Under the pieces are notes generated by a model. The model was not told the DNA's origin and did not search any database. It worked only from the letters and a program-made list of their open reading frames with translations. The position numbers and the translations under genes are program-made. A DNA stretch of 64,000 nucleotides. Source: Escherichia coli (GTDB lineage Bacteria; Pseudomonadota; Gammaproteobacteria; Enterobacterales; Enterobacteriaceae). This document shows positions 27,724 to 57,503 of this stretch, in pieces (position 1 is the first letter of the stretch; every line of letters starts with the position of its first letter). Location: NCBI RefSeq assembly GCF_050920415.1, contig NZ_CP169309.1. One strand, 5' to 3'.

Positions 27724-27726
27724 ATA

Positions 27727-27757
27727 AAAGGTCCGATGCCCATCGGACCTTTTTATT
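27727..27757. terminator. Bidirectional rho-independent terminator between the convergent ecdD and ygbN genes
   Basis: Perfect hairpin aaaaggtccgatg-ggc-catcggacctttt with A-run and T-run flanks. Confidence 0.6.
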
Positions 27758-37812: not shown

Positions 37813-39891
37813 TTAAACCAATGCCGATTTATCAATCCCCAGTCGTTTCATCCGTGATAGCAGTGTGGTGCGTTTTAGTCCCAGACGTTGCGCCGCGCCT
37901 TTCGGCCCGGCAACCACGCCGTTAGTCTCTTTTAATACACGCACAATTAGCTGATATTCATCTTCGCCCTCCTGAGCGACGACCGTTGCAGTCGGCGGCG
38001 TTTTAGGTTCCGGTAAAGCAATATCAGGCAATGACAGCTGCAGCACGTTGCCACGTGTCAGCAATACCGCGCGCTCAATGACGTTTTCCAGCTCGCGTAC
38101 ATTACCTGGCCACTCCATATTGCTCAACGCGCGCAATGTTTCGGCAGGAATGCTGTCGATATTACGCCCCAGACGGCGGGCAATTTTAAAAGTAAAGGCT
38201 TTCGCCAGCAGCGGAATATCTTCCGGACGCTCGCGTAGTGGCGGCAGGTGGATCGGGAATACGTTCAGACGGTAATAGAGATCGCTACGGAACTCGCGGT
38301 CGGCAACCATTTTTTTCAGATCGCGGTTAGTCGCGGCAATTAAACGCACGTCCGTCTGTATAATTTTATTACTGCCGAGACGTTCAAACTCCTGTTCCTG
38401 TAATACACGCAGCAACTTCGGTTGTAACTCCAGCGGCATATCACCCACTTCATCGAGGAACAGGGAGCTTTTATCCGCCAGTTCAAAACGACCGATACGC
38501 TGGGCGCTGGCTCCGGTAAACGCACCACGCTCATGGCCAAACAGATCGCTTTCCAACAATCCGGCAGGCATCGCCGCGCAGTTCATTTTTACCATGCGGC
38601 GATTATTACGCCCACTGAGATTATGGATCGCGCGGGCAATCAGCTCTTTACCAGTGCCAGTTTCACCGAGGATCAGAACTGTACTGTCACTTTGTGCCAC
38701 CATTTCAACTTGTTTAAGCACGCTGTACATGGCTTCACTGCGACCAATAATCTCGCCAAATTCACTATCAACATTGTTGAGCTGCTCGGTCAGGGCGAGA
38801 TTTTCATCAACCAGTCGTTCTTTCAGACGATGAATTTCCTGATAGGCAAGGGCGTTATCGACAGCGATTGCCACACGTTCGGCAATCTGGCGCAGTAAAT
38901 TCAGATTGGTCGTGGTAAACACTTTCTCTTCGCATTGCGCCAGTTTCAGCACGCCCAGCATGGTGTCGCCAGACATCAGCGGTAACAGGCACAAGGTTTG
39001 AATCTGGTTGCCCCAGGTGTCGAACAACATGCGTTCGTAGGGGGCTAAATTATCTCGCTCGTGGAGATTAATCAGCAGCATCTCTTTGCTTTTAAACACG
39101 CGTTCGGTGAGGGTTCCTGCTTCATCGACTTCGCTCTGTTCGTGAGCGGGATGCTGTTTATCAAGATAGTGAGTGGAGTAGATGTTGAGTTTGTTTTTAC
39201 GGTGGCTGCGTAAGACGATGCTGATATCGTCAATGTCGAAATAGTAATGGATTTCTTTGGCGACTTCGCTGACCAGTTCGTCCATATCCAGGCGAGAAAG
39301 CACCGCGTTGGTGATGGCAACCAGGATGCGGAAGTTATCGCGTTCCCGGCATAACAACTCATAGTCGACATTATTGACGACGCGGCTCTGGATTTGTTCG
39401 GTGACGACAGAAATGATCTGCGTAAAAGTTTGCAGGCGATTGAACTCTTTTTCACTCCACGGGCGATCGTCATAACGAATAAATTCACAGCCACCAAAAA
39501 TATGCCCTTCCGCCGCCAGTGGCATCAGGCAATAGTGACCAAATTTGGGGTATAGCCCACCAGCGGCCAGCTGCGGCCAGGTTTCACAAAATTCTTCGTA
39601 ACTGCAATGCAGTGTATCAGGGCGCGACAAAATGCTGCGCACCGGACCGTGTGCCAGAACAGTTTCGTCTTCATAATTTATGGGGGTGTCTTTTTCACGC
39701 GACGCGTAATAAGACGCACGTTGAGTATGCGCTTGCCACAACACAATAGCTGCATTGTCGGCGAGCGCAGAACGCTTTACCAATTGCGAAAGAGCCTCAC
39801 ACAGCGAGGCCAGATCGGGCTGCTGCAATAGTGTCCGAGTGATGTCGAACAACCCTTGTTGTCCGAGATCACTCATCGGTGTATATGACAT
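37813..39891 (-). CDS. fhlA: Formate hydrogenlyase transcriptional activator (sigma-54-dependent enhancer-binding protein)
   Basis: 692 aa from the ATG at 39891 (MSYTPMSDLGQQ...); GAF domains, an AAA+ sigma-54 interaction domain ([14 protein letters not shown]) and a C-terminal HTH. Confidence 0.95.
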   Translation of the reverse strand: MSYTPMSDLGQQGLFDITRTLLQQPDLASLCEALSQLVKRSALADNAAIVLWQAHTQRASYYASREKDTPINYEDETVLAHGPVRSILSRPDTLHCSYEEFCETWPQLAAGGLYPKFGHYCLMPLAAEGHIFGGCEFIRYDDRPWSEKEFNRLQTFTQIISVVTEQIQSRVVNNVDYELLCRERDNFRILVAITNAVLSRLDMDELVSEVAKEIHYYFDIDDISIVLRSHRKNKLNIYSTHYLDKQHPAHEQSEVDEAGTLTERVFKSKEMLLINLHERDNLAPYERMLFDTWGNQIQTLCLLPLMSGDTMLGVLKLAQCEEKVFTTTNLNLLRQIAERVAIAVDNALAYQEIHRLKERLVDENLALTEQLNNVDSEFGEIIGRSEAMYSVLKQVEMVAQSDSTVLILGETGTGKELIARAIHNLSGRNNRRMVKMNCAAMPAGLLESDLFGHERGAFTGASAQRIGRFELADKSSLFLDEVGDMPLELQPKLLRVLQEQEFERLGSNKIIQTDVRLIAATNRDLKKMVADREFRSDLYYRLNVFPIHLPPLRERPEDIPLLAKAFTFKIARRLGRNIDSIPAETLRALSNMEWPGNVRELENVIERAVLLTRGNVLQLSLPDIALPEPKTPPTATVVAQEGEDEYQLIVRVLKETNGVVAGPKGAAQRLGLKRTTLLSRMKRLGIDKSALV

Positions 39892-43629: not shown

Positions 43630-43741
43630 TGTTGATTATCCCTGCGGTGAATAATGTCGATGATGTCGAAATGACACGTCGACACGGCGACGAAATTCAT
43701 CTTTAGCTTAAAAATCGCTTTAATAACAATAAATTAAAAGT

Positions 43742-43757
43742 TGGCACAGAAAATGCT
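43742..43757 (+). promoter_or_regulatory. Sigma-54 promoter (-24/-12) of the hyc operon
   Basis: TGGCACagaaaaTGCTT with correct GG-N10-GC spacing, about 40 bp upstream of the hycA ATG. Confidence 0.6.
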
Positions 43758-44255: not shown

Positions 44256-44379
44256 GCTGAGGCTTTGCCCGTTTTGCAGGCGTTACGCCTGTTTGGGGAT
44301 GGGCGTGTCGATGAGTGTCGAAAATGACATTTCATCGGCATGTTTTCGTCAAAAATGACAATCACCTGAGGAATGCCTG

Positions 44380-55815: not shown

Positions 55816-56826
55816 ATGACGACGATGCTGGAAGTGGCGAAGCGCGCCGGGGTTTCAAAAGCGACCGTTTCCCGCGTGCTTTCAGGTAATGGCTACGTCA
55901 GCCAGGAGACTAAAGATCGCGTGTTTCAGGCGGTGGAAGAGAGCGGCTACCGCCCAAATTTGCTGGCGCGCAATCTGTCAGCGAAGAGTACCCAGACGCT
56001 AGGGCTGGTAGTGACCAACACGCTTTACCACGGCATTTATTTTAGTGAATTACTGTTTCATACCGCGAGAATGGCGGAAGAGAAAGGGCGTCAGCTGCTA
56101 TTGGCAGATGGCAAACATAGCGCCGAAGAAGAACGCCAGGCGATTCAGTATCTACTGGATCTGCGCTGCGACGCCATTATGATTTACCCGCGCTTTTTAA
56201 GCGTAGATGAGATTGATGACATCATTGACGCACACAATCAGCCGATAATGGTGCTCAATCGCCGCCTGCGCAAAAACAGCAGCCATAGTGTCTGGTGCGA
56301 TCATAAACAGACCAGCTTTAACGCCGTGGCAGAGTTGATAAACGCCGGACATCAGGAGATTGCTTTCCTTACCGGTTCGATGGATTCCCCCACCAGCATT
56401 GAACGCCTTGCCGGATATAAAGACGCGCTGGCGCAGCATGGTATTGCACTCAATGAAAAACTTATCGCTAACGGTAAATGGACGCCTGCCAGCGGGGCCG
56501 AAGGGGTAGAAACGTTGCTCGAACGTGGGGCTAAATTTAGCGCGTTAGTTGCCAGTAACGACGATATGGCGATAGGTGCGATGAAAGCGTTGCATGACCG
56601 TGGTGTAGCGGTGCCGGGGCAAGTGTCGGTTATTGGATTTGATGATATCGCAATTGCCCCCTACACCGTTCCGGCGCTCTCCAGCGTAAAAATTCCGGTG
56701 ACTGAGATGATTCAGGAAATAATTGGGCGGCTGATATTTATGCTCGATGGTGGTGCTTACTCACCGCCGAAAACCTTCAGCGGAAAACTAATCCGCCGCG
56801 ACTCACTCATTGCTCTTTCGCGATAA
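55816..56826 (+). CDS. ascG: LacI-family repressor of the asc operon
   Basis: 336 aa from the ATG at 55816 (MTTMLEVAKRAGVSKATVSRVLSG); LacI HTH plus periplasmic-binding-like domain; divergent from ascFB; intact. Confidence 0.92.
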   Translation: MTTMLEVAKRAGVSKATVSRVLSGNGYVSQETKDRVFQAVEESGYRPNLLARNLSAKSTQTLGLVVTNTLYHGIYFSELLFHTARMAEEKGRQLLLADGKHSAEEERQAIQYLLDLRCDAIMIYPRFLSVDEIDDIIDAHNQPIMVLNRRLRKNSSHSVWCDHKQTSFNAVAELINAGHQEIAFLTGSMDSPTSIERLAGYKDALAQHGIALNEKLIANGKWTPASGAEGVETLLERGAKFSALVASNDDMAIGAMKALHDRGVAVPGQVSVIGFDDIAIAPYTVPALSSVKIPVTEMIQEIIGRLIFMLDGGAYSPPKTFSGKLIRRDSLIALSR

Positions 56827-56839
56827 ACATTGTCATCAC

Positions 56840-56876
56840 ATGTCATCGTCACTAGTGTCGATGACATCGTTTTTTC
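56840..56876 (+). terminator. Rho-independent terminator of ascG (near-perfect 28-bp palindrome plus T-run)
   Basis: atgtcatcgtcactagtgtcgatgacat (2 mismatches from perfect dyad symmetry) followed by cgtttttt, 14 nt after the ascG stop. Confidence 0.6.
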
Positions 56877-56921
56877 TGCATTGCAGAATTTAATTTCTTT
56901 AAATAACAATGAATTAAAAAT

Positions 56922-56937
56922 TGGCATGATTTGTGAA
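56922..56937 (+). promoter_or_regulatory. Putative sigma-54-type promoter of hydN-hypF
   Basis: TGGCATgatttgtGA with a good -24 element but a weak -12; the preceding ~20 bp (aaataacaatgaattaaaaat) is nearly identical to the sequence just upstream of the hycA sigma-54 promoter. Confidence 0.35.
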
Positions 56938-56975
56938 TGTATCGGCAGCATTAACTGTCATTGCTGGAGAATTTG

Positions 56976-57503
56976 ATGAACCGTTTCATCATTGCTGACG
57001 CGAGTAAATGTATTGGTTGTCGTACCTGTGAAGTGGCGTGCGTGGTTTCTCATCAGGAGAATCAGGACTGTGCATCGCTGACCCCGGAAACTTTTTTACC
57101 GCGAATCCATGTCATTAAAGGTGTGAACATTTCCACGGCGACAGTCTGCCGTCAGTGTGAAGATGCACCGTGCGCTAACGTCTGCCCGAATGGTGCTATC
57201 AGCCGTGATAAAGGGTTTGTTCATGTCATGCAGGAACGTTGCATTGGTTGCAAAACCTGCGTTGTGGCTTGCCCGTATGGTGCGATGGAAGTGGTAGTGC
57301 GTCCGGTGATTCGCAACAGCGGCGCAGGGCTTAACGTACGCGCTGACAAAGCCGAAGCTAATAAATGCGACCTCTGTAACCATCGTGAAGACGGCCCGGC
57401 GTGTATGGCTGCTTGCCCGACCCATGCGCTGATTTGTGTCGATCGTAATAAACTTGAACAACTGAGCGCAGAAAAACGCCGCCGCACGGCGCTGATGTTC
57501 TAA
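56976..57503 (+). CDS. hydN: Electron transport protein HydN (4Fe-4S ferredoxin-type)
   Basis: 175 aa from the ATG at 56976 ([22 protein letters not shown]); multiple ferredoxin Cys motifs. Confidence 0.93.

Follow-up and report, generated by a model that had tools for sequence, protein, structure and literature searches.

Sigma-54 promoters are inactive without an enhancer-bound activator, which usually sits 70–150 bp upstream. Control of hydN–hypF by formate, FhlA and sigma-54 is long established. Passages of reviews that cite Maier et al. 1996 place the operon in the formate–FhlA regulon (PMC11841067; PMC4987338), and a K-12 sigma-54 ChIP-seq site, CTGGCATGATTTGTGAA, is assigned to hydN and shares its core with the promoter sequence analysed here, TGGCATGATTTGTGAA (PMC4591121). 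In Salmonella, the counterpart promoter is bound by sigma-54 and the hydN–hypF operon appears in the FhlA-dependent list (PMC3844500). FhlA itself is a tetramer that contacts one face of the DNA, according to a passage citing Leonhartsberger 2000 (PMC11291172). Such established regulation implies an enhancer, so the element described below is of a kind and a function that are familiar already.

The window analysed here is a 64,000-nucleotide stretch of E. coli DNA that contains fhlA, hypE-A, hycA-I, ascBF, ascG, hydN, hypF and norWV. At the ascG–hydN locus its identity is ~94% with mainstream E. coli and 100% with NZ_CP169399. A long palindrome between the two genes had been read as the terminator of ascG. 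From comparative sequence analysis, we propose that this dyad is very probably the FhlA enhancer (UAS) of the sigma-54-dependent hydN promoter, PhydN. The features of the region are collected in Table 1.

Table 1. Features of the ascG–hydN region, in window positions.
Feature	Position	Strand	Evidence
ascG CDS, 336 aa	55816..56826	+	ORF list; RefSeq annotation; tblastn with AscG, 100% over residues 1–336
Auxiliary half-site GTCATCA (family consensus GTCRWCA)	56832..56838	.	Column conservation; direct repeat
Conserved 26-bp dyad core TGTCATCGTCA-CTAG-TGTCGATGACA, candidate FhlA UAS	56841..56866	.	Conservation in 82/83 sequences
Central 14-mer CGTCA-CTAG-TGTCG (CGWCA-N4-TGWCG; GTC-N6-GWC)	56847..56860	.	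FhlA matrix match
T6 run; with the dyad hairpin, intrinsic-terminator-like for ascG transcripts; lineage-specific	56870..56875	+	Sequence
Second small hairpin TTCTGCA-t-TGCAGAA, then TTTAATTT	56874..56888	+	Terminator scan; inverted repeat; −5.8 kcal/mol
A/T-rich IHF-like block TAAATAACAATGAATTAAAAA adjoining the −24 element	56900..56920	.	Fixed-position consensus TTaAAtAaCAgTnaaTTAAAA
Sigma-54 (−24/−12) promoter of hydN–hypF, TGGCATGATTTGTGAA	56922..56937	+	Same core as the K-12 ChIP-seq site
hydN CDS, 175 aa, first gene of the operon	56976..57503	+	ORF list; RefSeq annotation of the orthologous K-12-type region

The Palindrome Downstream of ascG

The near-perfect 28-bp palindrome reported after ascG is real and lies far beyond chance expectation. 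A repeat finder placed its arms at 56840–56853 and 56854–56867, each 14 nt long, 93% complementary and without a spacer; the A/T pair 56840/56867 extends the conserved 26-bp core to 28 bp. Two mismatches had been counted, and both bases are indeed present, but they face each other in a single T:T pair (56849/58). In K-12 the equivalent of the dyad lies at NC_000913.3 2838213–2838240. The dyad starts 14 nt past the ascG stop codon (56824–56826) and is followed on its 3' side by CG and then by the T6 run that had been described. The TGTCATC direct repeat noted in front of the dyad was likewise recovered, with one copy at 56831–37 and the second at 56841–47. The folding free-energy calculation that had been proposed as a check agreed as well: the 41-nt RNA segment carrying the dyad folds with −13.6 kcal/mol (z = −3.6), and none of 200 shuffled sequences was equally stable.

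Palindromes with at least 13 of 14 pairs have two centres in the 64-kb window, this dyad and a canonical terminator at ~27739, where chance would give 0.007 per 64 kb according to first-order Markov simulations and 0.01 according to an analytic estimate. The latter palindrome, at 27726–27753 (AAAAGGTCCGATGcccATCGGACCTTTTT), is the only other 28-bp near-perfect one in the window; it forms a GC-rich hairpin (−16.8 kcal/mol) between an A-run and a T-run and looks like a bidirectional intrinsic terminator.

The ascG–hydN dyad is single-copy, with a median of one place per genome across 5,425 E. coli genomes, and no Rfam family was found in 56600–57100 at E ≤ 1. A REP or other dispersed repeat and a known RNA family were rejected on these two results, respectively. 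More generally, the dyad could be a chance palindrome or a REP-like repeat without specific function, for which the intergenic location is the one point in favour. Against it stand the expectation of ~0.01 such palindromes per 64 kb, the single-copy state and a near-invariant sequence over ~20 genera between saturated flanks. The conservation data, set out below, refute this explanation, to which we give practically no credence.

Conservation across hydN Loci

The comparison covered 80 hydN loci of GTDB species representatives and two E. coli records, from ~20 enterobacterial genera (Escherichia, Salmonella, Citrobacter, Klebsiella, Raoultella, Enterobacter, Kluyvera, Kosakonia, Lelliottia, Trabulsiella, Cedecea and others). 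Of 83 sequences, 82 contain the core TGTCATCG(T/A)CA-N4-TG(A/T)CGATGACA, and 71 have it without a substitution. Across the 82 loci, core columns 1–11 and 16–26 carry ~2 bits and the central N4 carries 0.6–1.1 bits, against 0.03–0.6 bits in the flanking columns, the T-run stretch included, and likewise in columns 27–47. The auxiliary half-site GTCATCA, which lies one helical turn 5' of the first GTC of the dyad and overlaps the first TGTCATC copy, also stands out, its columns (−8 to −2) holding 0.75–1.8 bits where those around it hold less than 0.5 (82 loci).

Two variants deserve a mention. Enterobacter sp. Ag1 has the sole hydN locus without the full dyad and retains a diverged TGACACCGTCAAAAGTGTCGAATATC (~470–500). 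In Cedecea-type loci the outer arms are symmetrically flipped, with TGAC...GTCA in place of TGTC...GACA.

The dyad travels with hydN and not with ascG. In most genera the end of an AscG homologue lies 13–44 nt 5' of the dyad. The dyad is also intact where the upstream neighbour is hycI (Salmonella, Cedecea) or another gene 100–215 bp away, and unchanged in NZ_CP095086, an E. coli strain without the asc operon whose upstream gene is divergent. About 727 of the 5,425 E. coli genomes match the window only from ~56821 onward, meaning that ascG is missing there. In NZ_CP095086, the one example examined, other genes replace the whole asc operon and homology restarts at the last bases of ascG; since it resumes ~19 nt before the dyad, the boundary of the asc indel abuts the putative hydN enhancer.

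The spacing between the dyad and the promoter is constrained in a characteristic way. From the dyad centre to the −24 GG it measures either 59–62 bp (30 loci) or 69–72 bp (52 loci), and never 63–68 bp. Both classes occur inside Raoultella (59, 72) and inside Kosakonia (62, 70), which points to several independent indels that preserved the helical phase. The segment that varies in length is the one separating the dyad from the conserved A/T-rich IHF-like block.

The hydN–hypF Promoter and Its A/T-Rich Block

The sigma-54 promoter lies ~55 bp 3' of the dyad in the window, and 70 bp separate the dyad centre from the −24 GG. With the start site inferred from the −24/−12 geometry, the dyad would be centred at roughly −95. 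The IHF-like block differs from WATCAR-N4-TTR by one mismatch in the window, and the exact IHF consensus occurs at −18 in 18 of the 82 hydN loci.

A nearly identical block (43721–43746) precedes the sigma-54 promoter of hycA. Upstream of hydN and hycA the two sequences can be aligned collinearly through a GTC-rich block, the near-identical A/T block and the sigma-54 promoter, and their common module reads TAATAACAAT(G/A)AATTAAAA(A/G)TTGGCA. Individually, the modules in front of the two promoters are AAATAACAATGAATTAAAAATTGGCA for hydN (56901–56926) and TAATAACAATAAATTAAAAGTTGGCA for hycA (43721–43746). The norV promoter has a similar module, AACAATCAGATAAAAAACTGGCA, which suggests that the hydN, hycA and norV promoters may use a common IHF-plus-sigma-54 cassette.

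FhlA Motif Evidence

We scored ~128,000 positions with a published FhlA matrix of 14 columns, derived from 13 characterised sites (PMC7658346 Table 2). The two FhlA regions of the window that are known from experiment took the first and second ranks (44316–44329, 16.7 bits; 43655–43668, 15.3 bits), which serves as a positive control for the matrix. Within the ascG–hydN spacer the top match, CGTCACTAGTGTCG, scores 7.45 bits and is centred on the dyad axis; this score is modest (rank 175 of ~128,000) and not significant alone. The best matrix site of the K-12 fdhF UAS, CGTCAAAACTGACG, reaches 8.66 bits, and the hydN dyad centres of other genera score 6.1–10.2 bits. The matrix contains no C at position 1, and the dyad site and the fdhF 14-mer are therefore evidently outside its 13 sites. 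A review consensus, CATTTCGTACGAAATG, had no match at up to three mismatches in the whole window, known FhlA sites included; it is unusable as a test because the known FhlA regions also fail to match. A full-text literature search for the 12–14-mers of the dyad, fdhF and hyc returned unrelated primer matches only.

At 52 of the 82 hydN loci the dyad centre has the form CGTCA-N4-TGACG, which is exactly that of fdhF, and the region upstream of K-12 hyfA carries CGACACGGGTGTCG, the third hydN variant. The general motif CGWCA-N4-TGWCG is expected 0.24 times per 64 kb; 437 kb of enterobacterial DNA held a single occurrence outside the dyad, compared with 81 at the hydN dyad. Given such rarity, chance does not explain why it occurs 5' of three FhlA-dependent sigma-54 promoters that are unlinked. 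It stands 80 bp from the −24 GG at fdhF, 104 bp at hyfA and 60 or 70 bp at hydN. A second motif, TGWCGATGA, is present in both arms of the dyad. The window has five copies of it where 1.16 are expected, a number that 0 of 100 shuffles reached, and four of the five lie within three FhlA-controlled regions.

The relaxed pattern YGWCR-N4-TGWCR gave 11 distinct matches in the window (16 strand-hits, 4.4 expected), at 39366, 40792, 41256, 42158, 43655, 44316, 44347, 48030, 48321, 56217 and 56847. All of them fall in the fhlA–hyp–hyc–asc–hydN block, and the other ~46 kb have none. Seven of the 11 are intragenic (fhlA, hypE, hypD, hycE, ascG), and the strict CGWCA-N4-TGWCG is found inside fhlA (39366) and hycE (48321). 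These intragenic matches could be auxiliary FhlA sites or an artefact of codon composition.

The dyad might instead serve as the enhancer of a different sigma-54 activator, NorR or HyfR, or as an operator of AscG. NorR sites are also GTC/GAC inverted repeats, and norR–norVW lies 3 kb downstream; HyfR is an FhlA paralogue that acts at hyfA, whose upstream region has CGWCA-N4-TGWCG; and AscG is encoded immediately upstream of the dyad. However, the three NorR sites in the window have the form GTCA-N3-TGAC, that is GTC-N5-GAC, whereas the dyad is GTC-N6-GWC at its centre, the spacing of the FhlA matrix, and GTC-N3-GAC in its arms, with GTC-N5-GAC nowhere. On this difference in half-site spacing, NorR was rejected as the hydN activator. 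HyfR is opposed by the conservation of the dyad in Salmonella, which is not known to carry hyf or hyfR. AscG is opposed by its conservation in loci without ascG, and an AscG operator was rejected on this observation; the dyad sequence is also probably unlike a LacI-family operator. The literature, moreover, assigns hydN–hypF to FhlA. Taken together, we consider control by any of these other proteins very unlikely.

Possible Termination of ascG Transcripts

A Rho-independent terminator is what the palindrome most resembles at first sight. In that role it would primarily release RNA polymerase ~50 nt past the ascG stop codon and insulate hydN from read-through. The folding energy and z-score given above fit this function, as do the extension of the fold until the U-run directly abuts the stem, the start of the dyad 14 nt past the stop codon and the second hairpin, with its U-rich tail, that follows. 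U-rich tails are also present in Salmonella, where the co-directional hycI ends upstream. A hairpin and a U-tract after a co-directional gene are found in the window, but maintenance of the structure is not found in the orthologues. At least five T within 8 nt past the dyad occur in 22 of the 82 loci, mainly in Escherichia, Salmonella and a few others; the U-tract is absent from the remaining 60, including most genera with a co-directional ascG homologue 13–44 nt upstream. GC content is 43% in the stem, whose base is AU-rich, versus 67% and 80% in the canonical terminator at ~27739. A terminator also fails to account for a dyad that is unchanged where a co-directional upstream gene is absent, and it leaves the phasing to the downstream promoter unexplained.

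The pattern of substitutions bears on the same issue. In the 82-sequence alignment, seven of the 12 putative stem pairs are invariant. Among 78 distinct sequences the main variable pair, core 9–18, is T-A in 51, A-T in 3 and an unpaired T:T in 24, and the remaining changes affect the closing pair and the second W position. In the FhlA matrix the third base of TG(A/T)C is degenerate, and the W positions fall on this base. Symmetric changes there and at the closing pair do not discriminate, because a symmetric protein site and an RNA stem both predict them. The stem bases, on the other hand, are invariant and not co-varying, and a third of the sequences, Escherichia among them, have one mismatched pair, which is not what a terminator stem would predict. 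The 22 invariant bases set against saturated flanks indicate base-specific recognition.

A consensus terminator scan called the small second hairpin and not the dyad, whose internal mismatch breaks the stem rule. This second hairpin, which varies within Escherichia and is absent in other genera, may be a back-up ascG terminator. Among the entries listed in two E. coli Term-seq supplements (PMC7815308, PMC12207403), none was for ascG or hydN or had coordinates 28382xx; as ascG is poorly expressed, the missing 3' end is weak evidence. The original prediction of an ascG terminator is thus borne out in that the hairpin and T6 run are real and could terminate transcription in Escherichia, but the features that a terminator requires are not conserved, and termination is an improbable primary function. 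Conservation, phasing and motif evidence favour the other suggestion made at the time, a protein-binding site, here one that would act on the hydN promoter.

It is plausible that ascG transcripts in Escherichia and hyc transcripts in Salmonella are terminated to some extent, because the hairpin reaches the U-run, a stop codon lies 14 nt upstream and a second hairpin follows. That the dyad also acts as a weak terminator in these two genera, in a secondary and derived role, seems possible although somewhat doubtful; if terminating, its hairpin would protect the formate-specific control of hydN. An enhancer of this kind also encodes an RNA hairpin because it is palindromic, and we suggest, only tentatively, a dual use in which an ancient FhlA enhancer had its hairpin turned into an intrinsic terminator by the gain of a U-tract in Escherichia and Salmonella. 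Under such a dual use, the terminator would keep ascG or hycI read-through out of the enhancer and the sigma-54 promoter, and FhlA occupancy and upstream termination could affect one another, for instance by a roadblock or by competition between hairpin and protein.

Proposed Mechanism

The properties of an FhlA UAS that are found at the dyad are its position relative to a sigma-54 promoter, the motif, conservation independent of the upstream neighbour, and placement on one helix face together with an IHF-like block. The G's of its GTC/GAC triplets lie at 56832, 56842, 56848, 56857 and 56863, with intervals of 10 and 21 bp between the outer ones, which puts them on one face of the helix. That FhlA physically binds the dyad as an oligomer on nested half-sites is our inference, and so are its stoichiometry and the role of IHF.

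In this model, FhlA, a formate-responsive bacterial enhancer-binding protein, would recognise nested GTC/GAC half-sites as an oligomer: the inner CGWCA-N4-TGWCG, the outer TGTCA...TGACA 21 bp apart and the extra GTCRWCA 10 bp upstream. DNA looping would bring the bound FhlA, from ~70 bp 5' of the −24 element, to the closed sigma-54 holoenzyme complex. The A/T-rich IHF-like block probably helps this looping, as IHF bound there would bend the DNA. When formate is present, ATP hydrolysis by FhlA would then open the promoter.

The biological gain is small, since this is textbook biology of the formate regulon. The result corrects an annotation by appearance: a hairpin with T's at a stop codon is easily taken for a terminator, while the feature under selection is the putative enhancer of the neighbouring operon. 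What our analysis adds is a cross-genus definition of the hydN enhancer, its 60/70-bp helical phasing and the CGWCA-N4-TGWCG core common to hydN, fdhF and hyfA. This core is poorly captured by the 13-site matrix or by CATTTCGTACGAAATG, and these additions could improve the prediction of FhlA sites.

Comparison with Known Systems

Like the dyad, the canonical terminator at ~27726–27753 consists of a hairpin and a U-run just past a stop codon, and the folding energies are comparable (−16.8 versus −13.6 kcal/mol). Unlike canonical terminators, the dyad has an AU-rich stem base and an internal mismatch, is conserved in sequence and not in structure, has a lineage-specific U-tract and is phased to a downstream promoter.

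The NorR sites of norVW share with the dyad the organisation of a sigma-54 enhancer, inverted GTC/GAC repeats and an IHF-like A/T block beside the promoter. They differ from it in being three separate 11-bp sites of the form GTC-N5-GAC, and in responding to NO and not to formate.

The FhlA UAS of hyc/hyp and of hycA–hycB have, like hydN, a GTC/GAC-rich block at an equal position relative to the sigma-54 promoter, the TGWCGATGA motif, the xGWC-N6-GWCx architecture and a near-identical A/T block and −24/−12 element. In contrast to hydN, they are arrays of partly overlapping, imperfectly symmetric 13–14-mers (TGTCGATGATGTCG, TGTCGAAATGACA, TGTCGAAAATGACA), whereas the hydN element is one compact, near-perfect nested palindrome of 26–28 bp that scores 7.5 bits against their 15–17. 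The fdhF UAS and the region upstream of hyfA resemble hydN in the CGWCA-N4-TGWCG core, whose specified bases equal the hydN variants of different genera, and differ from it in that the outer arms TGTCAT...ATGACA do not occur there in the same form.
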